DNA of 64,000 bases from an uncultured Acidobacteriota bacterium (GCA_963836075.1 CAWIIB010000009.1:672001-736000), one strand, 5' to 3'. Positions 13,187 through 35,000 are shown, counted from the stretch's first letter. The notes: generated from the letters alone by a model not told the origin. Numbers and translations: made by a program.

Positions 13187-13214
13187 GAACGGAGATCAGA
13201 GAAGGAGAAAGGTC

Positions 13215-13874: not shown

Positions 13875-13950
13875 CAGGGATGAGCCGTTGACATTCCCAT
13901 AGGCTCATTTTCGTTGAGGCCGTTGTGTCCACAACGCCCGATTATCGCTC

Positions 13951-13979
13951 TTGACAAGAAACGATGCCCGCATTATAAA
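13951..13979 (+). promoter_or_regulatory. Sigma70 promoter of tetR
   Basis: TTGACA (13951) - 17 nt - TATAAA (13974). Confidence 0.8.
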
Positions 13980-13997
13980 TAAGTTAACGCTTACTTA
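13980..13997. promoter_or_regulatory. Putative TetR operator 1
   Basis: TAAGT-taacgctt-ACTTA over the predicted transcription start. Confidence 0.7.
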
Positions 13998-14009
13998 TCT
14001 TGAGGAATC

Positions 14010-14621: not shown

Positions 14622-14668
14622 AACGGTGTCGGCCTGTGGGAGGGGAGAAATGTGTTGCACCAAGTAAG

Positions 14669-14686
14669 TAAGTGTATGTTTACTTA
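14669..14686. promoter_or_regulatory. Putative TetR operator 2, upstream of qNor
   Basis: TAAGT-gtatgttt-ACTTA, same arms and spacing as operator 1. Confidence 0.7.
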
Positions 14687-14770
14687 CCAATGTTTGATCA
14701 GCCGCGTGCCCGCCGCCCCCGCCGTTGCGGGTGGCCGGTGGCCGCGGCGACCGTGAAGGAGGGGGAAGAA

Positions 14771-17020: not shown

Positions 17021-17100
17021 TCGTCAGCGCCGACATTGCGAGCCTCCGGCCAGCGGGGGCCGCTGGAGGTCAGCAGAAGGAACATGCCACTACGCTCGTC

Positions 17101-17137
17101 ATTGCGAGGCACTCACCGCAGGTGAGTGCCTCGCAAT
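17101..17137. repeat. Perfect 17-bp inverted repeat with GCA triloop
   Basis: ATTGCGAGGCACTCACC-GCA-GGTGAGTGCCTCGCAAT. Confidence 0.85.
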
Positions 17138-17233
17138 CTCTCTTGGATTCACTGACTCCAGAGAAGTCGCCGCGTCGTCGGCTTCGCGGGCCCCTCGCAT
17201 TAGCACTGAGTGAGCATTATCAAGGAGTACGAC

Positions 17234-17521
17234 ATGGGTGAATGCGGACCAGGATGCGGCAGCGGAGCGGGCCCCTTTGCCGAGGGCCGGGAACTGGTGG
17301 AGTTTGTGAGCAATGCCCACGGCGGGGCGGTGGCCAGACAGCCGCTTCCGGCCGCGCTGGAAACGACGTGTCAGGGCTGCGGCGAGCCCTTTGCCCTGCG
17401 AACCTTTGTCGGCCGATGCCCGGCCTGCGCCGGGGTGCACGCCGTCTCGCCGCCGCGCTGCGACGATGCGGCCAACATCCAGTACGCGGGAACAGGTTTT
17501 GAGCCGTACGCTGAGGAGTGA
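17234..17521 (+). CDS. Small Cys-rich (Zn-ribbon-like) hypothetical protein
   Basis: AAGGAG RBS; CGPGC, CQGC and CPAC motifs. Confidence 0.7.
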   Translation: MGECGPGCGSGAGPFAEGRELVEFVSNAHGGAVARQPLPAALETTCQGCGEPFALRTFVGRCPACAGVHAVSPPRCDDAANIQYAGTGFEPYAEE

Positions 17522-17597
17522 CAGGTGTCCATCGCGGTTCCGCCGATCGTGACACCTGCCCGCACGTCTTTCAGTTCAACACCCAGGAGGTGAAACC

Positions 17598-18149
17598 ATG
17601 GATCCCATCAACGTTCTCGTCAGCGAACACACCCTGATTCGCCAGTTCCTCTCCAGCCTCTCCTTCGCCCTGGAGAAACTGGAGCGGGGGGAGACGCTGA
17701 GCAAGGAGTATGTGGAGCAAGTGGTCGTGTTTGCCCGCAATTTCGTCGACAAGCACCACCACTTCAAGGAGGAGTACCAGATGTTCAGGATGGTGGCGGA
17801 GAAACACGACGGACAGCTCGACGCCCAGCTGGACGCCCTTCGCAACCAGCACGAGCACGGGCGGCAGTACATCACTGACATTACCGCATCCTTGGACGGG
17901 CACCTGAACGGTGACGACTCCAGGACGACGACCATGCTGGAGAGCCTTGCCGCCTACCTCTCCATGCTGCGCCAGCACATCAACCGCGAGGACCATATCT
18001 TTTATCCCATGGCGCGCAAAGCCCTCAGCGGTGACGAGTTCGAGCGGCTGCGAACATCGTTCGAGGAGGCGGACGCCAAGGCCGGTGAGGGTTTCATGGG
18101 CGAGTACCAGGAGCGAATCCTCAAGATGGAGGCCCTGCTCACCACCTAA
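17598..18149 (+). CDS. Hemerythrin (HHE) domain protein
   Basis: LVSEHTLI, HHFKEEYQMF, QHEHGR, HINREDHIFYP. Confidence 0.9.
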   Translation: MDPINVLVSEHTLIRQFLSSLSFALEKLERGETLSKEYVEQVVVFARNFVDKHHHFKEEYQMFRMVAEKHDGQLDAQLDALRNQHEHGRQYITDITASLDGHLNGDDSRTTTMLESLAAYLSMLRQHINREDHIFYPMARKALSGDEFERLRTSFEEADAKAGEGFMGEYQERILKMEALLTT

Positions 18150-20267: not shown

Positions 20268-20807
20268 TTGAACGGTTCGGACCAAGTTCTCTACAGGGAG
20301 ACGCAACGATTCACCCAATGGTGGATCTGGGTCCTGGTGCTGGGGATCGCGGGCTTGATGTGGTACGGAGCCGTTCAGCAGCTGCTGTTCGGCATCCCCT
20401 TCGGAGGCAATCCCGCGCCCGATCCGTTGATGTGGATCCTCCTCCTGGTCTTCGGCGTCGGCATGCCGTTGTTGATGTACGCCCTGAACCTCAAAACCGA
20501 AGTTCGTCCCGATGGTCTCTATCTCCGGATATTCCCCCTGCACCGGCGATACCAGGTCATCCAGTGGCAGGAGATCGAGCGGTTCTACCCGCGGACGTAC
20601 CGACCCATCCGGGAGTACGGCGGGTGGGGGATCCGCTACGGGTTGAGCGGCAAGGCTTACAACATCAAAGGAATCCAAGGCCTTCAACTGGAATTGAACG
20701 GGGGGAACCGTCTCCTGGTGGGGTCCGCCGATCCAGAGTCCCTGGTTCAGGCGATCGCCTCGGCATCGGGATTGTCCTCCCATGATCCGGGGGAGTCCGG
20801 CTCATAA
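20268..20807 (+). CDS. Membrane protein with PH-like domain (DUF6141-like)
   Basis: YRETQRFTQWWIW, two TMs, YRPIREYGGWGIRY; start codon uncertain (TTG). Confidence 0.7.
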   Translation: MNGSDQVLYRETQRFTQWWIWVLVLGIAGLMWYGAVQQLLFGIPFGGNPAPDPLMWILLLVFGVGMPLLMYALNLKTEVRPDGLYLRIFPLHRRYQVIQWQEIERFYPRTYRPIREYGGWGIRYGLSGKAYNIKGIQGLQLELNGGNRLLVGSADPESLVQAIASASGLSSHDPGESGS

Positions 20808-20876
20808 ACCTGACCCGGCGGCGCTGCTAACCGAGCACCACCAACAGCCCCCGGAAAAGGGGGCCGTTTCATGTAC

Positions 20877-20931
20877 ATGACAGGATTGTCATCTCGGGGG
20901 ACGTGTGCGGTTCAGAATAATCGAGTAGTAT
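20877..20931 (+). promoter_or_regulatory. Regulon promoter P1 (response regulator)
   Basis: ATGACA-GGAT-TGTCAT, N18, TTCA (20911), N11, TAGTAT (20926). Confidence 0.8.
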
Positions 20932-20938
20932 TTCATCC

Positions 20939-21613
20939 ATGAACGTGCTGATTATCGAAGATGACCGCAAGATCGCCTCCTTCGCGAAAAAGGGCCTGGA
21001 GGAGCAGGGCTTTACAGTGACGGTCTGCCGCGATGGCGACGAAGGGTGTGAGCTGGCCACCGGCCTCGCCTGGGATGCCGTCATCCTCGACATCATGCTC
21101 CCCGGCCGCGACGGGCTGAGCATCCTGCGCACCCTGCGTGACGCGGGCAACACAGTGCCGGTGATCCTGGTCACCGCCCGTTCCGGTCTGGACGAGCGTG
21201 TGGAAGGCCTCAATCTCGGCGCCGACGACTACCTGGCCAAGCCTTTCTACATCGAAGAACTGGTGGCCCGGGTCCACGCGGTGACCCGCCGCGCCTCGGG
21301 GGAGAAACTGAGCGTGCTCCAGTCGGGCGACCTGGTGGTCAACCTGATCACCCGCGAGGTGCGCCGGGGAGAAGAGGCGGTGGAGCTCACCGCCCGGGAG
21401 TTCAGCCTGCTGGAAATGCTGCTCCGCTCGCCGGGCCGGGTCTTCACCCGCACCCGCATCCTGGAACACGTCTGGGGCTATGACTTCGACCCGGAGACCA
21501 ACCTGGTGGACGTCTACATCCGCCGGGTGCGGAAAAAAGTGGACACCGACCCCGAACACCTGCTGATCGAGACCGTGCGCGGGGTGGGCTACCGGCTGCG
21601 CAAGGAGGACTGA
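20939..21613 (+). CDS. OmpR/CusR-type response regulator
   Basis: LIIEDD, ILDIMLPGRDG, GADDYLAKPF, wHTH 'NLVDVYIRRVRKK...TVRGVGY'. Confidence 0.95.
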   Translation: MNVLIIEDDRKIASFAKKGLEEQGFTVTVCRDGDEGCELATGLAWDAVILDIMLPGRDGLSILRTLRDAGNTVPVILVTARSGLDERVEGLNLGADDYLAKPFYIEELVARVHAVTRRASGEKLSVLQSGDLVVNLITREVRRGEEAVELTAREFSLLEMLLRSPGRVFTRTRILEHVWGYDFDPETNLVDVYIRRVRKKVDTDPEHLLIETVRGVGYRLRKED

Positions 21614-23095
21614 ATGCGCATCCTCTCCTTCCGCACCCGCATCGCCCTGCTCTCCCTGCTCATTTCCGGCGCGGTGCTGGTGGCCTTCGGCTTCTCCTTC
21701 CTGCGGGTCATCCAAAAGGTGGGCCTCGACCGGGTGGACAATGAACTCAGTTCCCTCGCCGAAAGCCAGCTCCGTGGTCACCACCCCCCGGAACACTGGG
21801 AACTGTTTGACCAGTCACTGGGTGATATCTACGGAGAGGAACAGCGGGAGCAGCGGATCATTCTCCTCGAGGACGACAGCGGACAGGAGCTCTACCGATC
21901 ACCCCACTGGCCGGAAGGACTTCTGCTCCCCGACTTTCCACCCCTGGAATACCCGAACCCTCCGCCGACATCATCTCTGAGGCCTGGTGGTCCACCACCG
22001 GGACGTGGAGGACCGCCCCTTGGGCCCGGTGGCCCGCCAAGGGAGCACCAGCCGCCCAGTTTCCCGCAATTCCGTTCCATCACCGCCGGGGACAGTACCT
22101 ATCGTGTCTGCCGGATGGGCAACCAGCGCACCACCCTCACCATCGGCCTCGACCTGGCGGCGCACCGGGCGGAGACGAATCGCTTCCGCAATACCTTTTT
22201 CACCGCCGCCCTGGTGGCGCTCCTCCTCCTGGCCCTGGGTGGCTGGATCCTCGCCCGGCAGGCCCTGGCCCCGGTTGCCGCAATCACCGCCACCGCCAGC
22301 AAGGTCACCGCCCGGGGGCTGGACCAGCGGATTCCGCAGCGGGAGGCCGATGTGGAGTTCGAGCGGCTGACCGAGGTGATCAACAGCATGCTCGGCCGGC
22401 TGGAGCGAAGTTTCCAGCAGGCAGCGCGGTTCAGTGCCGACGCGGCCCACGAGTTGAAGACACCGCTGACCATCCTGCAGGGCGAGCTGGACCAGGCGCT
22501 GCAAAGTGCCGAACCGGGATCAGGGGACCAGCAGCGGTTCGGCGACCTGCTGGAGGAAGTCCAGCGCCTGAAGGCCATCGTGAAAAAACTGCTCATTCTT
22601 TCCCAGGCCGACGCCGGCGAGCTGAACCTCTCTCTCGAGCCGATTGACATCAGCCGGGAGTTGAGCGCCACCGCCGAAGACCTGGAAATCGTCGCCCCCT
22701 CGCTCGAGGTCCACAAGGACCTGCCGCCGGGCATCAAGATCAATGCCGATCCCGATCTCCTGCGCCAGGTGATCAGCAACCTGGTCAGCAATGCGGTGAA
22801 GTACAACCGGGAGGGGGGCTGGATCGAGATGCGCCTGGAGCAGGATGGGACATCGGCCTCGTTCACCATCTCCAACAGCGGCGACGCCATCCCCTCCGCG
22901 GACCGGGAGCTGATCTTCCATCGCTTCCACCGGGTCGATCCGGCGCGGAGTAAGGTCGTGGAAGGCACCGGCCTCGGCCTCAGCCTGGCCCACGAGATCG
23001 CCCGGGCTCACGGCGGCGACCTGGTCCTCTCAGCCGACGCAGAGGACCGGTCCACATTCATCCTCACCCTGCCGCTGGCCCGGACAGCAAACTGA
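21614..23095 (+). CDS. CusS-like sensor histidine kinase (2 TM, HAMP, HisKA, HATPase)
   Basis: FSADAAHELKTPL, NLVSNAVKYN, GTGLGLSLA; Gly/Pro-rich periplasmic loop. Confidence 0.95.
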   Translation: MRILSFRTRIALLSLLISGAVLVAFGFSFLRVIQKVGLDRVDNELSSLAESQLRGHHPPEHWELFDQSLGDIYGEEQREQRIILLEDDSGQELYRSPHWPEGLLLPDFPPLEYPNPPPTSSLRPGGPPPGRGGPPLGPGGPPREHQPPSFPQFRSITAGDSTYRVCRMGNQRTTLTIGLDLAAHRAETNRFRNTFFTAALVALLLLALGGWILARQALAPVAAITATASKVTARGLDQRIPQREADVEFERLTEVINSMLGRLERSFQQAARFSADAAHELKTPLTILQGELDQALQSAEPGSGDQQRFGDLLEEVQRLKAIVKKLLILSQADAGELNLSLEPIDISRELSATAEDLEIVAPSLEVHKDLPPGIKINADPDLLRQVISNLVSNAVKYNREGGWIEMRLEQDGTSASFTISNSGDAIPSADRELIFHRFHRVDPARSKVVEGTGLGLSLAHEIARAHGGDLVLSADAEDRSTFILTLPLARTAN

Positions 23096-23115
23096 CCCTC
23101 CCGACACGATTCAGG

Positions 23116-23170
23116 ATGACAGCATTGTCATTCCACCAGCCACCGCACGTTCATTCCCTGCCCGTATAGT
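23116..23170 (+). promoter_or_regulatory. Regulon promoter P2
   Basis: ATGACA-GCAT-TGTCAT, N18, TTCA (23150), N11, TATAGT (23165). Confidence 0.8.
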
Positions 23171-23219
23171 GATGATGTAAGAAAAAACCTAATGACACGG
23201 ACCAGCGGGGGCAAAGAAC

Positions 23220-23288
23220 ATGAACAATCCATACGTCATCGCACTGATTGCACTGATCGCACTGTATGCCGTCCTGTCGGCGGCATAG
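23220..23288 (+). CDS. Candidate 22-aa hydrophobic micropeptide
   Basis: MNNPYVIALIALIALYAVLSAA*, preceded by a GGGGG run, directly downstream of P2. Confidence 0.4.
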   Translation: MNNPYVIALIALIALYAVLSAA

Positions 23289-23399
23289 GAAGGGCCGGTT
23301 TTCCGGCCTCGGGGGCTGGACCGGATTCTCCCGGGCTCCTGGAGGAGAACGCCGGGAGCCGGTTCGGCCCCCGGAAAGGGAAACGGGAAAGGACGAACA

Positions 23400-23615
23400 A
23401 TGGCCATCGAACGCATAGACGGATGCATCGGCTGCGGAACCTGCGTAAAAACCTGTCCGACGGATGTGATTCGCACGGACCCTGATACCGGGAAGGCAGT
23501 AATAACGTATCCGGCCGATTGTCAGATCTGTCACCTCTGCCGGATGTACTGCCCGGTCGATGCCATCACCATCACACCGGAGAAGTCCATCCCGGTGGTG
23601 GTCTCGTGGGGCTAG
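23400..23615 (+). CDS. 2x[4Fe-4S] ferredoxin (AprB-like small subunit)
   Basis: CIGCGTCVKTCP and CQICHLCRMYCP. Confidence 0.93.
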   Translation: MAIERIDGCIGCGTCVKTCPTDVIRTDPDTGKAVITYPADCQICHLCRMYCPVDAITITPEKSIPVVVSWG

Positions 23616-23617
23616 TC

Positions 23618-24259
23618 ATGAGAAGTCAAACCAAGAGAAACTACCTTATCCCTGAAGCCCTGGCATTCATGGGCCTGCCCCTGCTGCTCTGGGCCATGGG
23701 AAACGTCCCCCGTCGCACCATGCTCAAGGAGACCTTTTCCCTGCTGTTCATCCTGGCCTTCAGCCAGATGCTGGGGCAGTTCTATCTGTCCCGGGGCGGC
23801 AGGAATCTCTTCAGCGGCCCGACGATGGGTTCGACGATCAAGATTCACAAGATCGTCGGCTACACGGTTACCACCATGCTCCTCGTCCACCCGGTGCTGA
23901 TCGTCGTGCCGCGGTACTTCGAATCGGGGATCACCCCGCTCGATGCCTTCGTCACCATTGTCACGACCTTCGACAGCAGGGGGGTCGTCCTGGGCATCAT
24001 CGCCTGGAGCCTGATGATCACCCTGGGCATCACCTCCCTCATTCGCAACAGGCTGCCCATGACGTACAAAACATGGCGGCTGGTCCACGGGATACTCTCC
24101 GCCCTGTTCATCTCAGTGGCGGCCTGGCACGCAATCGATCTGGGACGTCACACCGACCGGGCCATGTCCATCTACATGATGGTTCTGGCCGCGGGCGGCC
24201 TCTTGCTCCTGACGAGATCCATCATCAACGGAAATAAACTGAAAACGGGGGACAGATAA
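23618..24259 (+). CDS. Ferric-reductase-like / MsrQ-like membrane cytochrome b (TM domain only)
   Basis: About 6 TMs; four His in the family pattern IHKIVG, LVHP, WRLVHG, AWHA. Confidence 0.8.
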   Translation: MRSQTKRNYLIPEALAFMGLPLLLWAMGNVPRRTMLKETFSLLFILAFSQMLGQFYLSRGGRNLFSGPTMGSTIKIHKIVGYTVTTMLLVHPVLIVVPRYFESGITPLDAFVTIVTTFDSRGVVLGIIAWSLMITLGITSLIRNRLPMTYKTWRLVHGILSALFISVAAWHAIDLGRHTDRAMSIYMMVLAAGGLLLLTRSIINGNKLKTGDR

Positions 24260-26059
24260 ATGAAAAACTCTAATGGATCCAGAAAGATGTCCCGCCGTAA
24301 TTTCATGGCCCTGACCGGCGGCGCCGCCGGGTTGGCCACCCTGGCCTCGATGGGGGTTTCCACCGGCTGGTCGTCGAATACGGCGGCAATTGATCCCGAC
24401 ACGTTGAAGCGAGTGGAAAACGAAACCGATGTCCTCGTCGTCGGCGGAGGGATTGCCGGGCTGTTCGCAGCGGTCAAGGCACACGATGCGGGCGCCAGGG
24501 TGCTGCTGGTTTCCAAGGGACGCCTCGGTTCGTCCGGCCAGACGCCCTTTGCCCGGGGCATCTTCGCCTATGACCCGGCCACGTCGGAGATGAGCCTTGA
24601 CGAATTCACGGCAGCCGTCTCCCGTTCCGCCCTGGGAACGAACAACCCGGTCTATACCCGGCAGATGGCCGAGCACTCTCTGGCCCGGGTCAACGAGCTC
24701 CGGGAATGGGGGTTCTTCGAGTCACCGCTCTACAACTCGTCCTTCAGCAAACCGATCACCCAGCGGAAAATCCCGGTCATCGAGCGGGTGGTTATCACCC
24801 ACCTGATCAAGGAGAAGGGCCGGATGGCCGGTGCCGCCGGTTTCAGCCTGGATGAGCAGACAGTCACCCTGTTCAAGGCCAGAAGCGTCATCCTCTGCAC
24901 CGGGGCGGGCGGATTCAAACCCAGCGGGTTCCCGATCTGCGACCTGACCCACGACGGCACAGCCATGGCCTACCGCATCGGCGCCAGGGTCACGGGCAAG
25001 GAATGGAACGACGGGCACGGCGGCCGTGCCGAGAACCCGGCGGCCTGCTACGACGGCTGGCAGGGCGTGCTGGAGCAGAATCCAGGCGTCACCGGCATCG
25101 GGATTCGTCACGACCTGGGAGTCGATGAGAACTACACCGCGTACATGACCGGCAACCCGGTCGTGCAGGGACCTCCAGGAAGAAACGGCGGTGAAAAACC
25201 AGCCGGCGGGCCCTATGTCCCGGAAGAGTTCCAACGAAGCGGCCCTCCCGGGGGTGGCGGACCTCCTGGCGACGAAGGCCCTCCGGGCGGCGGCAGGCCC
25301 CCCGGCGGCGAGGGCCCTCCGGGCGGCGGACCTCCCGGCGGAGACCGGAAAGGTGGTGGCCCCCCCGGCGGCGGGCGCGGTCCTTCAGTCGGCGGATCCT
25401 CGGCCGGCATGTCGATCCACAAGGCCGAGGGACTGGTCCCGATCAACGAAAAATGCGAGTCGGACATCCCGGGTCTGTACGCCGCGGGTGACGCACTGGG
25501 TTCATACATGGCCGGCGCCATCTACACCCAGATCGGCTCCTCCCTGGCCGGATCTGCCGTCCAGGGCGCCATCGCCGCGGAGGCCGCCGCGGAATACTGC
25601 AAAAGCGTTGAAATGCTGACAATTCCGGAAGCCAGGGCCCGCGCGGTGGAAGGAGAGATCCTCGCACCGCTGAAGAGGACTTCCGGCTACGGCCCGGCCT
25701 GGGTCACCCAGACGCTGCAGGGGATCATGATCCCGAACTTCGTCATCTACATCAAGAAGGAGAGCATCCTGAAGGCGGCCCTGGCCTACATCGAGGAACT
25801 CCGTGACCACCACATGCCGCTGCTCCGGGCCGCCGACCTGCACGAACTGCGGCTGGCCCACGAGACCGCCAACATGATCGTCAACGCCGAGATGAAGCTC
25901 AAGGCCTCCCTCATGCGCAAGGAGAGCCGCTGCAGTCACTACCGGCTGGACTACCCCGAACGAGACGAGGAGAACTGGAAGGCCTGGATCAATATCCGCC
26001 AGGGGTCCGACGGCAGCATGCAGCTGGAAAAGCAGCCGTTCGGCAGCTGGCCGGCATAG
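24260..26059 (+). CDS. Tat-exported FAD flavoprotein of the SdhA/FrdA/AprA superfamily
   Basis: SRRNFM Tat motif; DVLVVGGGIAG, VILCTGAGG, IPGLYAAGD, RKESRCSHYRLDYP. Confidence 0.85.
   Translation: MKNSNGSRKMSRRNFMALTGGAAGLATLASMGVSTGWSSNTAAIDPDTLKRVENETDVLVVGGGIAGLFAAVKAHDAGARVLLVSKGRLGSSGQTPFARGIFAYDPATSEMSLDEFTAAVSRSALGTNNPVYTRQMAEHSLARVNELREWGFFESPLYNSSFSKPITQRKIPVIERVVITHLIKEKGRMAGAAGFSLDEQTVTLFKARSVILCTGAGGFKPSGFPICDLTHDGTAMAYRIGARVTGKEWNDGHGGRAENPAACYDGWQGVLEQNPGVTGIGIRHDLGVDENYTAYMTGNPVVQGPPGRNGGEKPAGGPYVPEEFQRSGPPGGGGPPGDEGPPGGGRPPGGEGPPGGGPPGGDRKGGGPPGGGRGPSVGGSSAGMSIHKAEGLVPINEKCESDIPGLYAAGDALGSYMAGAIYTQIGSSLAGSAVQGAIAAEAAAEYCKSVEMLTIPEARARAVEGEILAPLKRTSGYGPAWVTQTLQGIMIPNFVIYIKKESILKAALAYIEELRDHHMPLLRAADLHELRLAHETANMIVNAEMKLKASLMRKESRCSHYRLDYPERDEENWKAWINIRQGSDGSMQLEKQPFGSWPA
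25241..25385 (+). repeat. Degenerate ~18-bp tandem repeat encoding (GPPGGx)n
   Basis: GPPGGG GPPGDE GPPGGG RPPGGE GPPGG GPPGGD ... GPPGGGRGP. Confidence 0.8.
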
Positions 26060-26108
26060 AAGAATATGTTTAGTACCCCGGCAGTGAGCCGTGACACCAA
26101 CTGGTCAG

Positions 26109-26163
26109 ATGACAGTATTGTCATTTGCCCGCCAGGGCGTTTTTCATGTTTAATCCGCATAAT
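26109..26163 (+). promoter_or_regulatory. Regulon promoter P3
   Basis: ATGACA-GTAT-TGTCAT, N18, TTCA (26143), N11, CATAAT (26158). Confidence 0.8.
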
Positions 26164-26326
26164 TCATGAGGAAGCGGCGAGATTTTGTCGAGGAAACCGC
26201 TTCGCACAGTGGCCAACCGCCCCGTTTCGACCCGGGACGATGCTATATCAGCAGCCGCACGGTAACCCGAGCGCACCATGAGGTTCCATAGTTTCTCAAT
26301 TACCCATCCCTGAAAGGACTTGAAAG

Positions 26327-28942
26327 ATGTTCAAGAGGAGTCCGGCCCGTACCGCCAGTTCACACTTCATACTCTATCCGGCATTCATACTGCTTGCCGG
26401 CCTGTTCATCATCGGCACGGCCACACCGGCCCTGGCCGGCTACCCTCCCGCAGCGTCGCACCCGCTCTTCGACGGTGATGCCGTCCACGAAATCCACCTG
26501 ACTTTCAGCCAGTCCAACTGGTGGACCCTGCTCGAGGACAACTTCGAGGGCCTGGAGGATCCTCTCTATCTCGAAGCCGACTTCGACTGGGATGGCCTTC
26601 ACCTGGACGACATCGGTGTCCGCTTCAAGGGCAGCAGCAGCTACTACAGCAACCCCACCGACAAGAAGTCGTTCAAACTGGACATCGACGAGTTCGTGGC
26701 CGGCCAGGAGATCTACGGTCTGGACAAGCTGAACCTGAACTGCAACTGGCTCGACCCCAGCGGTGTCCGGGAAAAGTGCATGTACGAACTGGGCTACGCC
26801 GCCGGGCTGCCCACCGAGCGGACCAACTATGCCGCACTCTACATCAACGGTGACTACTGGGGGCTCTACACCATCGTTGAACAGTTCGACGGAGAGTTCA
26901 TCGACAGCCGCTTCGGGTCCGCCCAGGAAGACGGCAACCTCTGGAAGGGGGATGACTACGGCACGCTGGAGTATCTCGGCACGGACCAGACCTCCTACTA
27001 TGGCGACTACGAGCTGAAGACCAATGAGACGGCAAACGACTGGTCGGCCCTGATCGAGCTGACCGACGGCCTGAACAACACGGCCATCGGCGATCTCCCC
27101 GGCGTGATGCACGACCTGATCGACGTGAACTCCGCCCTGGCCCTCATCGCGGTGGACAACCTCTGCGTGAACCTCGACACCTACATCGGCCGCTGTGCCA
27201 ACTACTACCTCTACCACCGGGACCTGGACAGCCGTTTCGTCTTCGCCAACTGGGACCTCAACGAATCGTTCGGCGTCTTCAACATGTACGGGCTGTCGAT
27301 CACTCAGCTGAAGCAGTTGAGCCCCTACTGGACCAACCCGCAGGGGGGCGAGGAACGACCGCTGGCCGAACGGCTCTGGCAGATCCAGGCCTACGATGAC
27401 ATCTATATCGGGCACCTGCAAAAGCTGATGGCCGGCGCCGCCGAACCGGACACCCTGATCGCCCGAATGGAGGAGCTGCGCACCCTGATCCAGCCCCATG
27501 TCTATGCTGAAGTGTCCCCGCGACGGATCTTCACCCCCACCCAGTTCGACAACGCCATGAGCACCGACCAAACCTACGGTTCGGGGGGCCGCCCCCGGCC
27601 CATCCCCGGGCTGGAACCTTTCATCCGTGACCGTGACACCTGGCTCCGAGGCCAGATCGGCACCTGGACGCCGCTTGACGGCCTGGTGATCAACGAACTG
27701 ATGGCCAGCAATTCCAGCACCATGGCTGACGAACATGGCGACTTCGACGACTGGATCGAGATCTACAACGGCGGCACGGAGACCATCGCCCTCACCGGCA
27801 TGAGCCTCACCGACGACTTGAGCGTTCCGGACGCCTATGTCTTCCCCTCGACGTTCCCCGCCACCACCATCGCCCCCGGTGAATACATCATCGTCTGGGC
27901 CGACGACGAGCCGGAAGAAGGGGATTATCACGCCGGGTTCAAACTCAGTGCCGACGGCGAACCCCTCTACCTGCTGGACGGCGGGGTGATCGTCGACGAC
28001 ACCACCTGGCAGCCGCTGGGCCCGGACGTGAGCTGGGGCCGGTGGCCCAACGGCACCGGCGGGTTCAAGACGCTGGGCACGGCCACCCCGGGCGCGGAGA
28101 ACGACGACTCCACCACGCCGGAAGAGGTTGTCCTGTTCATCAACGAGTTCATGGCCGACAACACCAGTTTCATCGAGGACCCGGACGAACCGGGCACCTT
28201 CCCCGACTGGGTGGAGATCTACAACCCCGGCCCGGTGGATGTGGAAATGGAAGGCCTGTTCCTCACCGATGACCTGACCCAGACCACCCAGTGGGCTTTC
28301 CCTGAACTGACCCTTGGCGTCGGCGAGTTTCTGGTACTGTGGTGCGATGATGACGAGGGCGACGGCCCGCTGCACACCAATTTCAAACTGGGCGCCAGTG
28401 GCGAAGAGATCGGCCTGTATGGCCGCATCGCGGCGGGCAACGAACTGATCGACTCCTACACCTTTGGCCAGCAAAACGAAGACGAAAGCGAGGGGCGGGA
28501 GACCGACGGTGCGGCGACCTGGGTCTTCTTCAGCTCACCCACTCCAGGTTCGAGCAACGGAACGGGGGCGTCTTCAACGGTGGCCGCCGAATTGACCTGC
28601 ACACCTTCAGCAGGCACGGTTCCTTTCAGCACCCAGATGGCCGTTACCCTGACCAATCTCTACACCGGCCAGACCCGCCGCATGGCCGGACGGGTCAACG
28701 TAACGATTGCCAGCGGCAACTCCTATACCAGCTGGCGTGCCGGATACACCAACCTCTCGCCCGGTGAGAGCTATGTCACAAACTGGTACCAGACCATTCC
28801 GGCGCTGGGTTCAGTGGTGGGCGACAACCTGTTCAGCCTGGTGGCGGAGGACGTGACTCCGGCCCCGTATAACCAGCCGCCCTACCCCGCGGCAGGCGAC
28901 ACGGCCACGGACGCCTGTATCGTGACCGGCATCGCCCCTTAA
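26327..28942 (+). CDS. Secreted CotH-kinase-family protein with two lamin-tail domains and a C-terminal beta domain
   Basis: GVRFKGSSS, KKSFKLD, YWGLYTIVEQ, NYYLY, WDLNESFG; two 'INE(L/F)MA.N...DW(I/V)EIYN' LTD domains. Confidence 0.9.
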   Translation: MFKRSPARTASSHFILYPAFILLAGLFIIGTATPALAGYPPAASHPLFDGDAVHEIHLTFSQSNWWTLLEDNFEGLEDPLYLEADFDWDGLHLDDIGVRFKGSSSYYSNPTDKKSFKLDIDEFVAGQEIYGLDKLNLNCNWLDPSGVREKCMYELGYAAGLPTERTNYAALYINGDYWGLYTIVEQFDGEFIDSRFGSAQEDGNLWKGDDYGTLEYLGTDQTSYYGDYELKTNETANDWSALIELTDGLNNTAIGDLPGVMHDLIDVNSALALIAVDNLCVNLDTYIGRCANYYLYHRDLDSRFVFANWDLNESFGVFNMYGLSITQLKQLSPYWTNPQGGEERPLAERLWQIQAYDDIYIGHLQKLMAGAAEPDTLIARMEELRTLIQPHVYAEVSPRRIFTPTQFDNAMSTDQTYGSGGRPRPIPGLEPFIRDRDTWLRGQIGTWTPLDGLVINELMASNSSTMADEHGDFDDWIEIYNGGTETIALTGMSLTDDLSVPDAYVFPSTFPATTIAPGEYIIVWADDEPEEGDYHAGFKLSADGEPLYLLDGGVIVDDTTWQPLGPDVSWGRWPNGTGGFKTLGTATPGAENDDSTTPEEVVLFINEFMADNTSFIEDPDEPGTFPDWVEIYNPGPVDVEMEGLFLTDDLTQTTQWAFPELTLGVGEFLVLWCDDDEGDGPLHTNFKLGASGEEIGLYGRIAAGNELIDSYTFGQQNEDESEGRETDGAATWVFFSSPTPGSSNGTGASSTVAAELTCTPSAGTVPFSTQMAVTLTNLYTGQTRRMAGRVNVTIASGNSYTSWRAGYTNLSPGESYVTNWYQTIPALGSVVGDNLFSLVAEDVTPAPYNQPPYPAAGDTATDACIVTGIAP

Positions 28943-29080
28943 CCCTGGTTTCATTTCGGCCGCCCGGTGAGCTGTGGCTACCGGGCGGCCGTCATTCCAG
29001 GTCATTGCGAGGTGACTTATAATCGCCCGTATCGCAGAAGCATTGACCAATCACACCAGCCAATCGGGCTGGTTTTCATT

Positions 29081-29135
29081 TTGACAACTTTGTCATCCAG
29101 GCTGAGGGGGTCTGTTCATCCTGGGCTCGTATCCT
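29081..29135 (+). promoter_or_regulatory. Regulon promoter P4
   Basis: TTGACA-ACTT-TGTCAT, N18, TTCA (29115), N11, TATCCT (29130). Confidence 0.75.
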
Positions 29136-29180
29136 ATTGATGAGAGTAAGAAACAGATACATCCACAAAAGGAGACCGTC

Positions 29181-29732
29181 ATGAACAACCTCATCAATTC
29201 AGCGATTCTCAGTGCGATCGTGGCACTGCTCCTGCTCCTGGCGGGAAGCAGCGAACTGTATGCCCAGGGCCGCGGCCAGCCCGACGGACCGGGCAGAGGG
29301 ATGCGCCAACCCCCCAGCGTGGACCAGGTCTTCGCCAGGGAAGACGAGGACGGCGACGGCCTGATCAGCCAGGACGAGTTCGGCGGACCGGCCGAGCACT
29401 TCTCCCTCTTCGACACCGACCGCGACGGATACCTGACCCGGGAGGAAGTGACCGCCTCGCTGAAGAACCCTCCCCCGCGCAATGGCGGTGGCGGGCAGGG
29501 CCGCGGCAACGACCCGCGGTCACGGCAGAGTGGCCCCCCCAAGTCGGACTTCACACAGATGGACACAGATGGCGACGGGGTGCTCAGCGCCGAAGAGTTC
29601 ATCGGCCCAGAGGATCTCTTTTCCCTGATCGACGCCGACCAGGACGGTGCGCTCACCGAAGAGGAACTCGACAACGCCCGGGACAGGATCCCTTCACCCG
29701 GGAACGGCAGCCCGCCCGGTCAGGCACGGTGA
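29181..29732 (+). CDS. Secreted EF-hand protein (4 EF loops)
   Basis: DEDGDGLISQDE, DTDRDGYLTREE, DTDGDGVLSAEE, DADQDGALTEEE; signal peptide. Confidence 0.9.
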   Translation: MNNLINSAILSAIVALLLLLAGSSELYAQGRGQPDGPGRGMRQPPSVDQVFAREDEDGDGLISQDEFGGPAEHFSLFDTDRDGYLTREEVTASLKNPPPRNGGGGQGRGNDPRSRQSGPPKSDFTQMDTDGDGVLSAEEFIGPEDLFSLIDADQDGALTEEELDNARDRIPSPGNGSPPGQAR

Positions 29733-29756
29733 TTCCCTGACCAACGAGGAGTAATC

Positions 29757-32060
29757 ATGAAAAGGAACACCATCACTCCGAAATCAGCTCTACCGGCTGC
29801 GCTGATCGTGCTGCTTCTCCTGGGCGGGAGTGTTCCCGCCCAGGCCCAGGACTCGCCAGTGGTGGACACCGGCCAACTGCTCTGCTACGACGAGCTTGAC
29901 GAAATCACCTGCCCGGCCGAGGGGCAGGCCTTCTTCGGCCAGGACAGCCAGTATGACGGGAGCCAGCCGCTGTTCACCATCAGCGGTGACGGGCTGACCG
30001 TCCACGACCTGGTCACCGGCCTGACCTGGCAGCAGAGCCCGGACACCGACGGGGACGGCACCATCGAATATTCGGACAAGATGTCTTTCCAGGATGCCCA
30101 GAACCGGCCGGCGGCGCTCAACGCCATGAACTACGGCGGCTTCGACGACTGGCGCCTGCCGTCGATCAAGGAGCTCTACTCGCTGATCGATTTCAGCGGC
30201 GTGGACCCCAGCGGTTGGACCGGCAGCACGGCCGGGCTCATCCCCTTCATCGACACCGACTATTTCGGGTTCGAATACGGCGACGAAAGCTCGGGTGAGC
30301 GGATCATCGACTCCCAATACTGGTCGAGCAACGAGTATGTCGGCACCACCATGGGCGGCGACCATACCGTCTTCGGGGTCAACCTGGCCGACGGGAGGAT
30401 CAAGGGCTATGGCACCACACTCTTCGGCAGCGACAAGCTCTCCTTTGTCCAGTGCGTGAGGGGCAATCCCAGCTACGGCGTCAACGACTACACCGACAAC
30501 GGGGACGGCACGGTGACCGACAACGCCACCGGCCTGATGTGGACGCAGGACGACAGCGGCAGCGGCATGTTCTGGGAGGACGCCCTGAACTATGCCGAGA
30601 CCCTCGATTTCGCCGGGCACGAAGATTGGCGGCTGCCCAATGCCAAGGAACTGCAGCTGATCCTCGACTATACCCGTGCGCCCGGCGCCGCCGACCCCGG
30701 ATTCCGCGGCCCGGCCATCGATCAGGTCTTCAGTTGCACCGCGATCACCGACGAGGGGGGCGGTGTCAACTATCCGTTCTACTGGACCGGCACCACCCAT
30801 GCAAACTGGACCGATAACCCCGGCGGGTTCGGGGCCTATGTCTGCTTCGGTGAAGCGCTGGGATGGATGGAGCAGCCGCCCGGCTCCGGCAACTACGTCC
30901 TGATGGATGTCCACGGCGCCGGCTCCCAGCGCAGCGACCCGAAGGCCGGCGACCCCGACGACTGGCCTTACGGCCACGGCCCCCAGGGAGACGTGATCCG
31001 CATCTACAACTTCGTCCGTTGCGTGCGGGACGATGTGGATTTGACCGGCGCGTTTGTCCTCACCGGCCCCGGCCCGGGGTATGACAATTCCGCCCTGGTC
31101 CGGGCGTTTCCGCCGGAGCAGGACGCGGTGCACAGTTCCCAGTTCTTCGCCTATTCACCGGAGCACTACGGGGTCAACGTTACTTCCGGGGATGTGGACG
31201 GCGACCTGCTGGACGAAATCATCACTGGCGCCGGCCCGGGCGATATCTACGGGCCGCACGTGCGCGGTTTCCAGATTGACGGCTCGGCCATCGCCGGGCT
31301 CAGCTTCCTGGCGTACGGGACCAACAAATTCGGCGTGAATGTCGCCGCCGGGGACATTGACGGTGATGGCGACGACGAGATCATCACCGGCGCCGGCCCC
31401 GGCGCGGTCTTCGGCCCGCATGTCCGGGCCTTCAACTACGATGGGACTGGAAACCTTACATCGGTTTCGGGCGTGAACTACTTCGCCTACGGCACACCCA
31501 AGTGGGGTGTGAACGTTGCCGGCGGCGACATCGACGGCGACGGCTATGACGAGATCGTCACCGGTGCCGGCCCGGGCTCGGTCTACGGACCCCACGTCCG
31601 CGGCTGGAACGTGGATGGAGAAGCTGCGACCGCCATCAGTGCGGTGAGCTTCTTCGCCTACGGCACCAACAAGTTCGGGGTCAACGTAACCTGCGGCGAT
31701 CTGGACGGTGACGGCATCGACGAGATCGTCACCGGCGCCGGCCCGGGCAGTGTCTTCGGCGCGCACGTCCGGGGCTGGAACTATGACGGAACTGCGCTCG
31801 CGTCCATTTCAGCGATCAACTTCTTTGCCTGGCCCACTGACCAGGCACGGTACGGCGCGAAACTGTTTGCCGGAACCGACCTGGATGACGACGGAAGGGA
31901 CGAACTGGTGGTCGGCCCGGGACCCGACCCGGAAATGAGTTCACCGGTCAGGGTCTATCAATACGACGGATCGCAGGTCGACATGCTGCTTTCGTTCCAG
32001 GCCTACCCGGACGGATGGACCAGGGGTGTCAGCGTGGCCGCCGGGAAGTTTGGCGGGTGA
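29757..32060 (+). CDS. Secreted DUF1566 (Lcl) x2 protein with C-terminal FG-GAP-like repeat module
   Basis: VVDTGQ..CYD, TVHDLVTGLTWQ, DWRLPSIKELYSL, DNGDGTVTDNATGLMW, DWRLPNAKEL; repeats GVNV..GD.DGD..DEI.TGAGPG. Confidence 0.88.
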   Translation: MKRNTITPKSALPAALIVLLLLGGSVPAQAQDSPVVDTGQLLCYDELDEITCPAEGQAFFGQDSQYDGSQPLFTISGDGLTVHDLVTGLTWQQSPDTDGDGTIEYSDKMSFQDAQNRPAALNAMNYGGFDDWRLPSIKELYSLIDFSGVDPSGWTGSTAGLIPFIDTDYFGFEYGDESSGERIIDSQYWSSNEYVGTTMGGDHTVFGVNLADGRIKGYGTTLFGSDKLSFVQCVRGNPSYGVNDYTDNGDGTVTDNATGLMWTQDDSGSGMFWEDALNYAETLDFAGHEDWRLPNAKELQLILDYTRAPGAADPGFRGPAIDQVFSCTAITDEGGGVNYPFYWTGTTHANWTDNPGGFGAYVCFGEALGWMEQPPGSGNYVLMDVHGAGSQRSDPKAGDPDDWPYGHGPQGDVIRIYNFVRCVRDDVDLTGAFVLTGPGPGYDNSALVRAFPPEQDAVHSSQFFAYSPEHYGVNVTSGDVDGDLLDEIITGAGPGDIYGPHVRGFQIDGSAIAGLSFLAYGTNKFGVNVAAGDIDGDGDDEIITGAGPGAVFGPHVRAFNYDGTGNLTSVSGVNYFAYGTPKWGVNVAGGDIDGDGYDEIVTGAGPGSVYGPHVRGWNVDGEAATAISAVSFFAYGTNKFGVNVTCGDLDGDGIDEIVTGAGPGSVFGAHVRGWNYDGTALASISAINFFAWPTDQARYGAKLFAGTDLDDDGRDELVVGPGPDPEMSSPVRVYQYDGSQVDMLLSFQAYPDGWTRGVSVAAGKFGG

Positions 32061-32095
32061 GGGGCTTTAACTGAAAACCGATTCGGCCGTTGGTG

Positions 32096-35000
32096 CTATT
32101 CCCGCCACCGGGCCGCCTCGGCCGGTTTGCCCCATGCTTCGTAAAGTCTGACAAGACTCTGGAAATTATACCGCTGCAGCCTGGGGCGGTTCTTCCCGTA
32201 TTCGCGCACCAGTTCATGGGCGTTAAGTAGCAGGGACTCCGCCTCGGTGAATCGTCCACTACGTGTCAGGCACTCTGCCAGGGTTGTCTGGAATCCGGCG
32301 TAACCGGCAGGATTGTCCCGTTCTTCCAGGTTGTTCTGCATCGTGCGCAGGGCATCCCGCAATTCTGTCTCCGCTGATTGGAGATTTCCTCCTCGAAGAT
32401 GAGCCAGGCCGAGGATCATTTTCGCCTCCCCGGTGGCCCAGTAGTTCTCTCCTCGCGCCTCTTTCCAATACCTGATCTGATCCTGCCCGATTTGAACCGC
32501 TTCTTCCGTCGCTCCCAGATGAGCCAGTTCCGTACCGAGTCGCAGTTCCGCAAGTCGACAGCGATTGATCCCTGCCTCTCCCAGGGGGGTGCACGTTTCA
32601 GCAACCCGTCTGAACAGGGCGACCGCCTCCTGCCCCTGATCGCACCAGGCGAATCTGCGCCCAACGGGATAGAGCACATTTTCTGCGTACTCAAGTGACG
32701 CCTTTCCATGAGCTTCAATTACCAGTCTCTCTGCCTGCGCCAGGCGGCTGTTCGCCTCGACCTGCTTTCCCTGGGCGGCCAGTGCTCCGCAAAGAAAGAC
32801 CAGCGCCTGAACCTGATCATCAGCATTCGGCTCACTCATCCCCTCGTGCAATTCCACCGCCTCGAGAAGAACCGCCTCAGCTGCCGCCCACAAGCCTTCA
32901 TCGACAAGACTCTCGCCAAAGTCACGGAGGTCCTCGGCGATATCGACCTGCTCCCTGTCCGCCTGTTGCCGCATCGAGCGAACCTGGAGAAGGGTTTCCG
33001 CTTTTGCACCATCCAGATCGCCCGCCAGGGTGAGATAGCGCACCAATCCCAGGACGAGCGTCTCGGCATTGGGAGTGTTTCTGGACTCGAGAAGGGCCAC
33101 TGCCTGCCGCTGAACTTCGATGGCCCGGGGCAGATTCCCGGTCATCCGGCAGCCCCGGGCCAGAGTGTCCAGAAGCAGACTGGAGTCCTCCGGAGGCACC
33201 GCACGGATGGCCTTTTCTGCCACAGGGAGTGCCGCTTCAGGATCGCGAAGGTCGGGGGGCCAGCAGGTGAGCAGTTCCCAGGCGTATTCATTGAGCGCTT
33301 CGGGGCCGGCATCATCAGCTTCCGCACGACGTCGGAGATCAGCCAGATGGTCCCTGACATAGTCCCGGGCTTCACCGTGGCGTCCGGCGGCCCGCAGCCC
33401 TGCCAGCAGGTGTCCTTCCGCGTACATGGTCCAGGTGTTCGACTCGCCATGCGTCTCCAGGCAGGCGTCGTAAATTTCACGGTAGAGCCGAAGTGCCTCG
33501 TCCGTCTTCCCCCGCCGCAACAGCAGGTCCGCCAGGTCCCGGGAGAGGACCCAACTGCTGGGCGAAGCGTTCCCCTCGTTTTTCTTGAACACGCGGAGCG
33601 CCCGTCGCCAGAGGTCTTCCTTCTCGTCAAACTCCTTCGAGCGCTGTAGGCTGCGGCCGAGGCCCATCATGGCGAAGGCGGTTGACGGGTGATCGGGTCC
33701 GAGCACTCGCTCGATGTTCTCCAGGGAGGCTTTCCAGCTGTTTTTCCCCGGCCTCGTATTCTCTCTGGAAATTCAGCGCCCAGCCGAGGGTCGTTTCGGC
33801 ATACAACGCCAGCGCATCATCGGAGCTGAAGTGCCGCCGGGTGATCTCGAGGGCTTCGCGGGTCAGCTCTTCGGCCTCCTTACCGCGGTTACCCCACATG
33901 TGCCAGTGGGCCCACTCCAGAAGGGTGAACACCACGTCCCGGTGCTTGTTGCCCAGAACCCGGCGCTGCTTCTCCAGGGTGTCGCGAAACACATCGGTTG
34001 CCGAAGAGAATTTCCCCTCATTGTCCAGCAGCGAGGTGCTGCGGTCCACGGTCAGGGTTTGGGCCAGAAAGGTGGTGGCGGAAAGGGTGTTCGGGTGCTC
34101 CGGCCCGTAGATCCGCTCGAAACCGTTCCGCGCCGCCTTGACCATTTTCGCATCCATCAGCAGGTATCCGAGCTGTAGCTCGGAGCGCAACCGGTCGGGA
34201 TGATCCTCGGGGAGGATGCCGGCCCGGATCTCAACCGCCCGTTCCAGGTGCGGTCTCGCATCCTCCAGATGTCCGAGCCCGGCCAGGGTGATCCCGATGG
34301 TCTCCCGCGCTTCCGCCTCCAGCCCAGGCTTCCCCCGGAATGTTTCTTCGAGCCTTTCGCCACCCCGTTTCAGCATCTCCACCACCGAAACGTTGCGGTC
34401 GAACACGCCCTTGGTGGTGCCGGTGACGGCCTCCTCGGGGGCGAAGGCGGAGTGGAGGCGCAGTTGCTGGGGATCCACCGAGCCGAGCATGTCGGAAAAG
34501 AAACTGTTGATCGCCCTTGCCGACTCCGCCTCGGCCCGGGCCACGGCCCGCTCCCTCGAGGCCTGGGTAAAACCGATCATGGAGAGCACCATCCCGGCGA
34601 ACAGGGCCAGCCCCACAACAGTGGCCACTCCCACCGCGGCCCGGTGGCGTCCGACGAACTTGCGCGCCCGGTAGATGGCGCTGGGCGGGCTGGCCAGCAC
34701 CGGCTCCCCGTTGAGATAGCGCCGCACGTCGAACATCATGCCGTTGGCCGTCTCGTAGCGCCGGGTGCGGTCCTTCTCCAGGGCCTTCATCACGATGCAG
34801 TCGAGATCACCTTTGAGATGCTTCCGCAGCCCCTCCCGGTCGGTCTGCTGGTGCTCGGCGGTGCTGGTGGCATCCCGGCCCAGGGTCTGGATGCGGGTCG
34901 ATGGTTTGTGCGGGCTTTCCTCCCGGATCAGTTTCTGGATGTCCGCATGGGACAGGCTCTTCAGCCGCTGGACATCGAAGGGCGTGGTCCCGGTGAGCAG

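Follow-up and report, generated by a model that had tools for sequence, protein, structure and literature searches.

CusR-type switches are the textbook regulators of copper and silver, HprR controls msrPQ, and PhoQ and the Ca2+-responsive CarSR of Pseudomonas are cation-sensing systems with periplasmic PDC sensors. E. coli CusR is reported to bind one box between two operons and to autoregulate (PMC10920338; 10.1101/2020.08.17.251918), and CotH, polyphosphate polymerase and DUF4956 genes are described, with no function assigned, as an accessory group beside Gram-positive pel operons (Whitfield et al., 10.1101/768473). The subject of this report is a locus (20877..32060) in a 64,000-nucleotide stretch, hereafter the window, of an uncultured Acidobacteriota bacterium, where four promoters (P1 to P4) carry a box of the CusR type. 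The window is contig 9, 672001-736000, of assembly G000, which holds 6,227,877 bases in 10 contigs and is 94.7% complete. P1 precedes a response regulator and a kinase, P2 a ferredoxin, a cytochrome b and a flavoprotein (the triad), P3 a CotH protein, and P4 an EF-hand protein and an Lcl_C protein. We propose, with a probability of roughly 0.6, that the four boxes are binding sites of the adjacent CusR-clade regulator, and that they define an autoregulated regulon of four units in which a cation signal governs a redox and Ca/phosphate-related cargo; that a regulon of some kind is real we consider highly probable.

The box WTGACANNNNTGTCAT (WTGACA-N4-TGTCAT) is found in the window at 20877, 23116, 26109 and 29081, and these four sites give seven strand matches because three of them are perfect palindromes. 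None was found in 100 dinucleotide-preserving shuffles of the window. At all four boxes TTCA lies exactly 18 nt downstream, in ungapped register, and a −10 hexamer begins exactly 11 nt past TTCA. On the + strand the elements are P1, 20877..20931 (box 20877-20892, TTCA 20911-20914, TAGTAT 20926-20931); P2, 23116..23170 (box 23116-23131, TTCA 23150-23153, TATAGT 23165-23170); P3, 26109..26163 (box 26109-26124, TTCA 26143-26146, CATAAT 26158-26163); and P4, 29081..29135 (box 29081-29096 with a TTGACA half, TTCA 29115-29118, TATCCT 29130-29135). Each site is upstream of, and oriented toward, a gene. The base-exact architecture of box, TTCA and −10 put forward in an earlier note on this DNA is thus exact at every site. 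Mean pairwise identity among the four is 0.85 in the box and 1.0 in TTCA. It is 0.24 for the upstream flank, 0.24 for the downstream flank, and 0.30 and 0.33 for the spacers; with flanks and spacers at background level, the promoters are not repeats of a single element.

Across the whole assembly the strict box has five occurrences, and the complete layout only the four in the window. Allowing up to two mismatches over the 12 specified positions raises the genome total to 302 strand matches, and TTCA at +18 accompanies solely the same four. The earlier note held that a motif at background frequency would undo its reading; scans of the genome place the layout at four sites only in 6.2 Mb. The fifth perfect box (ATGACATGTTTGTCAT, contig 9, 1754227-1754242) lies between convergent open reading frames (ORFs) and has neither TTCA nor a −10. 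A consensus scan for canonical −35/−10 promoters across the region found 1 against 2.3 expected. TTCA is ruled out as a −35 element, being only 11 nt from the −10, and a −10 placed 17 nt past TTCA was likewise rejected, as no hexamer is present there and the start would fall within the regulator gene.

In the E. coli K-12 cusR-cusC spacer, ATGACAATTTTGTCAT is followed after the same 33 nt by the hexamer TAAAGT, with TCAG at the TTCA position; we take the E. coli box to be positioned at −53. The resemblance to the CusR box claimed in the earlier note therefore holds both for the letters and for the distance to a −10-like hexamer. Both species have the inverted repeat ATGACA-N4-TGTCAT and, beside it, an OmpR-family regulator with a HAMP/HisKA kinase. 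At the level of sequence, P1 places such an operator next to the regulator's own operon, as the E. coli spacer does, and the autoregulation suggested earlier would fit this arrangement. Several features set the two apart. Here there are four unidirectional promoters, there one divergent pair; TTCA replaces TCAG; the kinase has no CusS domain detectable by sequence; the regulator falls in a separate clade with Opitutales; and the cargo consists of exported EF-hand, CotH and Lcl_C proteins and redox proteins, with no efflux pump.

When the three genomes of the genus were searched at the DNA level, the locus was located in G002 at 81-84% identity. It was not found in G001 (91% complete, 380 contigs), where the matches were to the repeated FG-GAP domain or were short and weak. 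The order in G002 is peptidase C69, P1, regulator and kinase, a P2-like promoter leading to an EF-hand/Lcl_C pair, and then a promoter leading to CotH. A metagenome contig pair, L115/L116, keeps the window's order together with P1, P2 and P3; its regulator is 95%, its kinase 78% and its flavoprotein 84% identical, and in L116 the CotH gene is followed by a protein resembling lamin-tail domain (LTD) proteins and phytases and by a VTC protein. Ten promoters from three genomes (four in G000, three each in G002 and L116) share the box, 18 nt, TTCA, 11 nt and a TAnnnT-like hexamer. The spacers of the CotH promoters have drifted to 0.22-0.45 identity between relatives, with elements and distances unchanged. 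In the host phylum, box-N18-TTCA was found in 3 of 401 genomes, with four matches in G000, three in G002 and one in G233, the last without a −10 and with C as the first letter of its box; the reversed pattern, run as a control, matched nowhere.

The full pattern, box-N18-TTCA-N11-TANNNT, was scanned over the genomes of 185,579 species. As the pattern fixes TTCA and TAnnnT, their presence in the matches is by construction, and the independent evidence is the spacing in G000, G002, L116 and L140 together with the flanking letters. The scan returned 17 stretches at 15 distinct places: one G002 contig, seven places in five Verrucomicrobiota records of metagenome-assembled genomes (MAGs; Opitutales, Opitutaceae, Puniceicoccaceae and Verrucomicrobiia), one in Oryzisolibacter and six in unrelated taxa. 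The layout is present in three genomes among 41 relatives of the Opitutales MAG, which brings all Verrucomicrobiota matches to 10 places in 6 genomes, with 11 promoter directions. Genes at these foreign loci were called by a simple longest-ORF rule. In Verrucomicrobiota the layout also precedes a regulator-kinase pair, an EF-hand gene with one for a 199-residue protein, and a gene for a 797-residue protein. The same box lies upstream of VTC and DUF4956 genes in two genomes (G402 and G404), of EF-hand and Lcl_C genes in G488, and of an EF-hand gene and an Lcl_C-arylsulfotransferase fusion in G402. In the betaproteobacterium Oryzisolibacter the layout stands behind a regulator and a CusS-domain kinase and before OEP/HlyD_D23/P-II/AcrB-type genes, which we identify from their families as a canonical cus operon (cusCBA).

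The two-component operon of G488 itself has a perfect box at the same distance from the −10, and where TTCA would stand one strand has a full TGTCAT and the opposite strand TTGC. PhoB-type promoters carry a proximal site near −28 to −24. The TGTCAT of G488 leads us to read TTCA(T) as a putative degenerate third half-site near −28 to −24.

The OmpR/PhoB-type regulator (20939..21613, + strand, 224 residues) matches Response_reg (9e-28) and Trans_reg_C (1e-29) in Pfam and is one of 8 OmpR-family regulators in the genome at E < 1e-30. Its best match among 99 NCBIfam families is TIGR01387 (heavy-metal regulators, 235.2 bits), and the equivalog models score 213 (MtrA), 211 (CusR), 203 (PhoB) and 202.7 bits (HprR, with a cut-off of 353). 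A tree of 15 rows was built that included the regulators of G000, G002 and L116, those of three Opitutales, E. coli CusR, the Oryzisolibacter regulator and one G000 paralog. The G000, G002 and L116 regulators cluster with the three Opitutales regulators, which adjoin the same box (support 92/96); E. coli CusR and the Oryzisolibacter regulator form a clade (99/97) that joins the window clade and the G000 paralog at an unresolved fork. We class the regulator-kinase pair as a probable CusR-clade two-component system.

The sensor histidine kinase (21614..23095, + strand, 493 residues) has HAMP, HisKA and HATPase_c domains and two transmembrane segments, and TIGR01386 matches it solely over residues 165-487 (267 bits). 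Its periplasmic domain, at about residues 33-190, contains the motif GHHPPEHW and a Gly/Pro-rich loop. This sensor domain had no Pfam match at E up to 10, either in the window kinase or in three Opitutales kinases, and the CusS sensor domain PF21085 was not found in the G000 genome at its 94.7% completeness. A model of the domain, with a mean predicted local distance difference test score (pLDDT) of 71 from a 6-row alignment, shows a PDC/PAS-like fold in which some 55 residues form a disordered loop. Foldseek places CusS (5KU5) at the top, weakly (E 0.03). VIA-align gives CusS a Z of 8.8, tied with Mlp24, TlpB, CitA and PhoQ at Z 8-10 (PhoQ sensor domains, 8.1-8.4), so the predicted fold does not discriminate between CusS and other PDC sensors. 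At E up to 1e-5, 190 homologs of the sensor region are found; those with a name come from Verrucomicrobiota, Pontiellaceae and Armatimonadia, and the JGI label is CusS.

The clade of the regulator, the family of the sensor and the layout of the promoters are each of the PVC (Planctomycetes-Verrucomicrobia-Chlamydiae) type and occur in one genus only of the host phylum, which suggests an exchange of the regulator pair between Verrucomicrobiota and this Acidobacteriota genus. Base composition gave no signal of recent transfer, the GC content of the locus (0.631) matching that of the window (0.628). The host itself is placed by RpoB, whose named relatives are Acidobacteriota only (Terriglobales, Silvibacterium and others, 68-72% identical), with three further proteins at 94-95%. 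The rpoB gene (contig 9, ~2605496-2609585, L137) appears as a frame of 1312 residues and a separate frame of 188 residues containing the end of Rpb2_6, where relatives have 1430-1490 residues; the probable cause is a frameshift or an error in the sequence.

A clue to the signal comes from homologs of the kinase. An EF-hand pair, its loops 23 residues apart, sits inside the periplasmic loop of P0140, P0141 and P0153. Single comparisons of this insert with the two EF pairs of the window protein give 46% and 52% identity (E 1e-11 and 2e-9), and insert and protein share the motif D-x-D-G-D-G-...-EF-x-GP-x-EHF. G000, G002, G402 and G488 each have an EF-hand gene either under the box or next to the two-component genes, and the same EF subtype adjoins the triad in L105, L120, L122, L074 and L112. 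By the logic of domain fusion, the free EF-hand protein and the sensor loop are probable partners, and Ca2+ or another EF-hand ligand is then a probable input. That the signal is specifically a Ca2+-type cation we hold to be possible, at somewhat under even odds. Prediction of a complex between the kinase sensor (33-192) and the EF-hand protein (29-183) gave no support (0.00 against a mark of 0.32, the fold of the partner being uncertain). As in PhoQ and CarSR, the sensor is predicted to be PDC/PAS-like and the regulon would include exported putative Ca2+-binding and propeller proteins; the present system differs in its CusR-type box and regulator clade, and in having EF-hands within the sensor or encoded beside it.

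An ordinary Cu(I)/Ag(I)-responsive CusRS/CopRS system, with the exported proteins as a lineage-specific envelope answer to copper stress, is the strongest competitor, though an unlikely one. In its favour, the type and position of the box are those seen for E. coli CusR and for the cusCBA operon, the best family models are those of heavy-metal regulators and kinases, homologs are named "heavy metal sensor kinase CusS" by JGI, the kinase has GHHPPEHW, an Lcl_C protein of a triad locus has MopE-type metal-binding motifs, and 5KU5 is the top, if weak, structural match (E 0.03). Against this, neither the kinase nor the genome has a CusS sensor domain by sequence, the family scores stay below their cut-offs, and the sensor fold ties with many PDC sensors including PhoQ and CitA. 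The EF-hand inserts of homologous sensors favour a hard cation over Cu(I). Among the 8 proteins of the locus, 4 flanking and 26 further window proteins there are no Cus or Cop genes, nor any for copper efflux, a multicopper oxidase or a copper chaperone. The earlier contrast with metal efflux is accordingly borne out for the cargo, whereas the signal may yet be a metal.

The triad behind P2 begins with a 2x[4Fe-4S] ferredoxin of 71 residues and no signal peptide (23400..23615, + strand). The earlier gene calls stand overall, except for the ferredoxin, which is this ORF; a 97-residue ORF behind P2 (23192-23485) was rejected as a gene, being Arg-rich, without a family match and apparently in the wrong frame. 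Next comes a membrane cytochrome b of the Ferric_reduct family, YedZ/MsrQ-like (23618..24259 with the most likely start, + strand; PF01794, E 1e-12), with two His pairs, 14 residues apart in each. The third member is a flavoprotein of the SdhA/AprA superfamily (24260..26059, + strand, 599 residues; FAD_binding_2 and Succ_DH_flav_C), predicted to bind FAD and to be exported by the twin-arginine translocation (Tat) route. Its twin-arginine motif is SRRNFM, in which R12, R13 and F15 are invariant in 8/8 aligned family members.

The nearest solved relatives of the flavoprotein, SdhA 7d6v, the alpha subunit of PAPS reductase 8a8o and AprA 2fja (E 6e-23 to 1e-17), align to its FAD and C-terminal parts only; in place of the middle, capping region it has a variable Gly/Pro-rich loop at about residues 303-375. 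Family members, all of which have the Tat motif and the variable loop, share about 70% identity in Desulfobacterota, Thiothrix, Bacteroidota, Phycisphaerae and Calditrichia, implying a strongly constrained activity. Its database names are generic, and the ESM Atlas has it in generic FAD-protein clusters only. Same-phylum matches were rejected as orthologs, belonging to ordinary SdhA/FrdA operons; that search included one unpublished genome (G025), on which no claim is based. The flavoprotein was not found at E 1e-50 in five genomes reached through pattern matches; in the phylum of G401, one genome out of 81 has it. A metagenome scan for flavoprotein loci kept 80; by tblastn the ferredoxin lies beside it in 66 of these (74-96% identical) and the cytochrome b in 73 (70/81 by clustering), each with the order kept, and short contigs explain most of the misses.

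By analogy with MsrQ feeding MsrP, the triad appears to be built like a periplasm-facing, quinol-fed reductase. It resembles the methylmenaquinol:fumarate reductase of Campylobacterota and AprAB/PAPS reductase in combining a Tat flavoprotein of the SdhA/AprA superfamily with a small 2x[4Fe-4S] partner lacking a signal, and differs in its Ferric_reduct di-haem anchor and in the loop that replaces the capping region. The kinase loop (~115-150), the flavoprotein loop and the surroundings of the EF-hand pairs all contain dense GPPGGG-type stretches that keep a Gly-X-Y register in part, as does L105:5915-6367; six-frame ORFs of at least 150 residues with such a stretch number 8 in the genome, two of them within this locus. 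The idea that the loop is a private link between kinase and flavoprotein is weakened, because the whole flavoprotein family has it and because in G002 the kinase loop persists although the flavoprotein is missing.

The triad also suggests an HprRS-like sensor of envelope oxidants, in which it would serve as a periplasmic repair or detoxifying reductase analogous to MsrPQ; we judge this improbable, a little more so than the copper explanation. The likeness to E. coli HprRS (YedVW) and hiuH-msrPQ is that of a CusR-related system controlling a di-haem Ferric_reduct protein that feeds an exported reductase, and the MsrQ/YedZ-type cytochrome b is paired here with just such a partner. In Opitutales MAGs the same layout stands upstream of an animal haem peroxidase and a di-haem cytochrome c peroxidase, and elsewhere the triad lies beside MarR regulators and efflux genes of the resistance-nodulation-division (RND) and major facilitator superfamily (MFS) types. 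Yet the partner is a ferredoxin with an FAD flavoprotein and no molybdoenzyme MsrP, the box is of the CusR type, and the HprR equivalog scores 203 bits against its cut-off of 353. The core regulon exists in G002 and in the Opitutales MAG.200 without a redox module, and an oxidant sensor would leave the EF-hand, CotH, Lcl_C and VTC genes unexplained.

The remaining cargo is carried by P3 and P4, all on the + strand: a CotH kinase-like protein with two lamin-tail domains (26327..28942, 871 residues; CotH 1.1e-55, LTD 3.4e-28), a four-EF-hand protein with two pairs and Pro/Gly/Arg-rich linkers (29181..29732, 183 residues) and a protein that has two Lcl_C (DUF1566) domains and ends in an FG-GAP propeller (29757..32060, 767 residues). 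Signal peptides are readable from the sequence on all three, which are accordingly predicted to be exported. The FG-GAP module (31057-32045, the last ~300 residues) is present in more than 40 copies per genome in G000, G001 and G002, at 72-77% nucleotide identity, and a Peptidase_C25 protein (window 51297-54428) ends in the same type; a very large family of exported proteins seems to have this C-terminal module in common.

These families recur around the triad elsewhere. Dereplication of the metagenome loci at 97% flavoprotein identity left 70 groups, 43 of which had an informative representative with at least 3 kb beyond the triad. In raw counts over these 43, Lcl_C and CotH each occur in 17, small EF-hand proteins in 8, a 140-residue family without a Pfam match (U140) in 9, DUF2490 in 5, and VTC and DUF4956 in 4 each; 31 have at least one of the seven. 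OmpR-type regulators and OmpR-type kinases are found in 16 loci each, any regulator (also LytS/LytTR, MarR or an extracytoplasmic function (ECF) sigma factor) in 30, and RND/MFS/OEP efflux genes in 8. In L098 the co-directional order is Lcl_C-VTC-DUF4956-DUF2490-CotH-U140-ferredoxin-cytochrome b-flavoprotein, and the N-terminal part of the Lcl_C protein is up to 62% identical in metagenome loci. Co-occurrence of the cargo families, which the earlier note proposed to check across genomes, comes to 31/43 informative metagenome loci by raw count. What had seemed an unusual mix in one genome is a neighbourhood that recurs across phyla and as cargo of the same box in Opitutales, and the "Ca/phosphate-related" description gains support from VTC-DUF4956 under that box and from the EF-hand inserts in homologous kinases. 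We lean towards the cargo being one functional system.

The families of the pel-side CotH/VTC/DUF4956 group also travel together beside the triad, behind the CotH gene of L116 and under the Opitutales box; compared with that group, the present loci add the triad, Lcl_C, EF-hand and a CusR-type regulator and have no pel genes. CotH adjoining VTC or DUF4956 does not occur in the window locus; the arrangement is seen for VTC in L116, and in 4 of the 43 informative triad loci. No description of the wider gene set was found in the literature searched, subscription journals being outside its coverage. U140 genes adjoin the ferredoxin or flavoprotein gene (L082:4090-4602 and 8 dereplicated loci) and are absent from the window. 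Beside the triad at L080:7405-10827 lies a gene for a protein of 1140 residues with four Lcl_C domains and three putative metal-binding motifs of the MopE type. A second CotH gene of G000 (contig 1, 452594-455492) stands beside a VTC-domain gene, as is usual for these two families, and has no CusR-type box.

The mechanism we propose for the regulon begins with a periplasmic cation, Ca2+ being the first candidate, which would be sensed by the PDC domain with EF-hand help and lead to phosphorylation of the regulator; the free EF-hand protein would work with the kinase's Gly/Pro-rich sensor loop. Binding of the phosphorylated regulator to the palindrome, centred ~53 bp upstream of the start, and to the TTCA(T) half-site would bring RNA polymerase to promoters equipped with a −10 and no −35, and so activate all four units including the regulator's own. 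Starts are predicted at ~20938, 23177, 26170 and 29142. Cytochrome b would pass electrons over the membrane to the co-exported ferredoxin-flavoprotein pair, which would reduce a periplasmic substrate. CotH, EF-hand and Lcl_C/FG-GAP proteins, and in relatives the VTC-DUF4956 polyphosphate-polymerase pair, may act on the calcium and phosphate chemistry of the envelope.

A bolder extension, which we think rather doubtful, makes the locus the regulated core of a hitherto undescribed cross-phylum envelope system that handles calcium and phosphate outside the cytoplasm and so controls mineral scale or metal-phosphate deposits. The EF-hands, built into the periplasmic loop or supplied free, would then be the cation sensor of the kinase, which would turn on extracytoplasmic VTC-DUF4956 polyphosphate synthesis, the secreted CotH kinase, Lcl_C/FG-GAP and the quinol-fed Fe-S flavoenzyme; the partly collagen-like Gly/Pro-rich loops might be handles for mutual recognition of kinase, flavoprotein and EF-hand proteins.

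A number of findings count against the cation-sensing regulon and its cargo as we have described them. The regulator, at 235 bits, is below the TIGR01387 cut-off of 279.2, and the kinase, at 267, below the 293 of TIGR01386. The EF-hand fusion is rare (3/120 kinase homologs among the matches listed), EF-hands can bind ions besides Ca2+, and the His-rich motif of the kinase would suit Cu or Zn too. The six scan places in unrelated taxa may be chance. The layout also precedes a haem peroxidase, a PMP-repeat protein, a 130-residue protein with a di-haem cytochrome c peroxidase, and a GH38 gene with a sulfatase, so that more than one cargo goes with the box. G002 lacks the ferredoxin, cytochrome b and flavoprotein genes and G001 the entire locus, which makes the triad an add-on and not part of the core. 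The neighbourhood figures are raw counts uncorrected for background, for which the 2 CotH genes per 6.2 Mb here give a rough yardstick. In 53 distinct metagenome regions no CusR-type box was found upstream of the ferredoxin, L115/L116 alone having it farther up, and the triad elsewhere has other regulators (LytS/LytTR, MarR, ECF sigma); the cargo set would thus be older and wider than this regulator.

That the four motifs are chance, or non-regulatory remnants of repeats or mobile elements, has almost nothing to commend it beyond the fifth strict box without promoter features and the chance-like look of some matches in unrelated taxa, set against 0 in shuffles, 0 for the reversed pattern in 401 genomes, ten identically spaced promoters in three genomes with diverged spacers, flanks at background identity, and sites that are each upstream of and directed toward a gene.

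On the regulon reading, two phyla have put the CusR-type box and promoter geometry to new use, for an exported gene set of quite another kind. With such non-efflux cargo, the automated label "heavy metal sensor kinase CusS" is probably misleading for this clade. The gene set itself, the triad with DUF1566, CotH, EF-hand, VTC and DUF4956, is newly defined, conserved and common in sediment bacteria, and the regulon offers an experimental handle on bacterial CotH kinases and on VTC-type polyphosphate polymerases beyond spores and yeast vacuoles, through its single regulator, its four clean promoters and a signal open to experiment.

The consensus scan also shows two terminator-like hairpins: just before P1, one (20847..20864, + strand, 6 G-C pairs and a T-rich tail) ends the upstream DUF6141 gene, and a second (29055..29073, + strand) follows the CotH gene just before P4. 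The −10 of P1 ends 7 nt ahead of the regulator ATG with no Shine-Dalgarno sequence between, predicting a leaderless or nearly leaderless mRNA, and the same arrangement is seen in G002 and L116. The P2 leader, by contrast in length, runs to ~220 nt. It contains a small ORF whose translation is a hydrophobic peptide of 22 residues (23220..23288, + strand), kept in L115/L116 with synonymous changes and deleted in G002; a hydrophobic small ORF precedes the ferredoxin in 4 of 54 loci (best-scoring per locus), and that of L115 alone resembles the window's. Its product could serve as a leader peptide or form a small subunit in the membrane. Between 23289 and 23400 two GC-rich hairpins fold with −66 kcal/mol (z −3.8). 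The long one (23310..23373, + strand) is conserved, with 24 predicted pairs, 2 of them with compensatory changes over 3 sequences, no T-run behind it, and a different gene after it in G002. An Rfam search of 20500-32500 at E up to 1 gave four sub-threshold chance matches, none reaching the gathering score. A search for sequencing runs listed 20 of metagenome DNA and none of RNA. Read assembly of X1-X4 yielded short low-depth contigs only, some identical to the window, and was uninformative on promoters and triad.

Elsewhere in the window, at 11396-18149, lie genes for a DUF438-hemerythrin-PAS protein, an ScdA-type hemerythrin, a TetR regulator, a quinol-type NorB (COX1 with a NorB cytochrome c-like domain) and a further hemerythrin, a cluster that looks like a nitrosative-stress defence.

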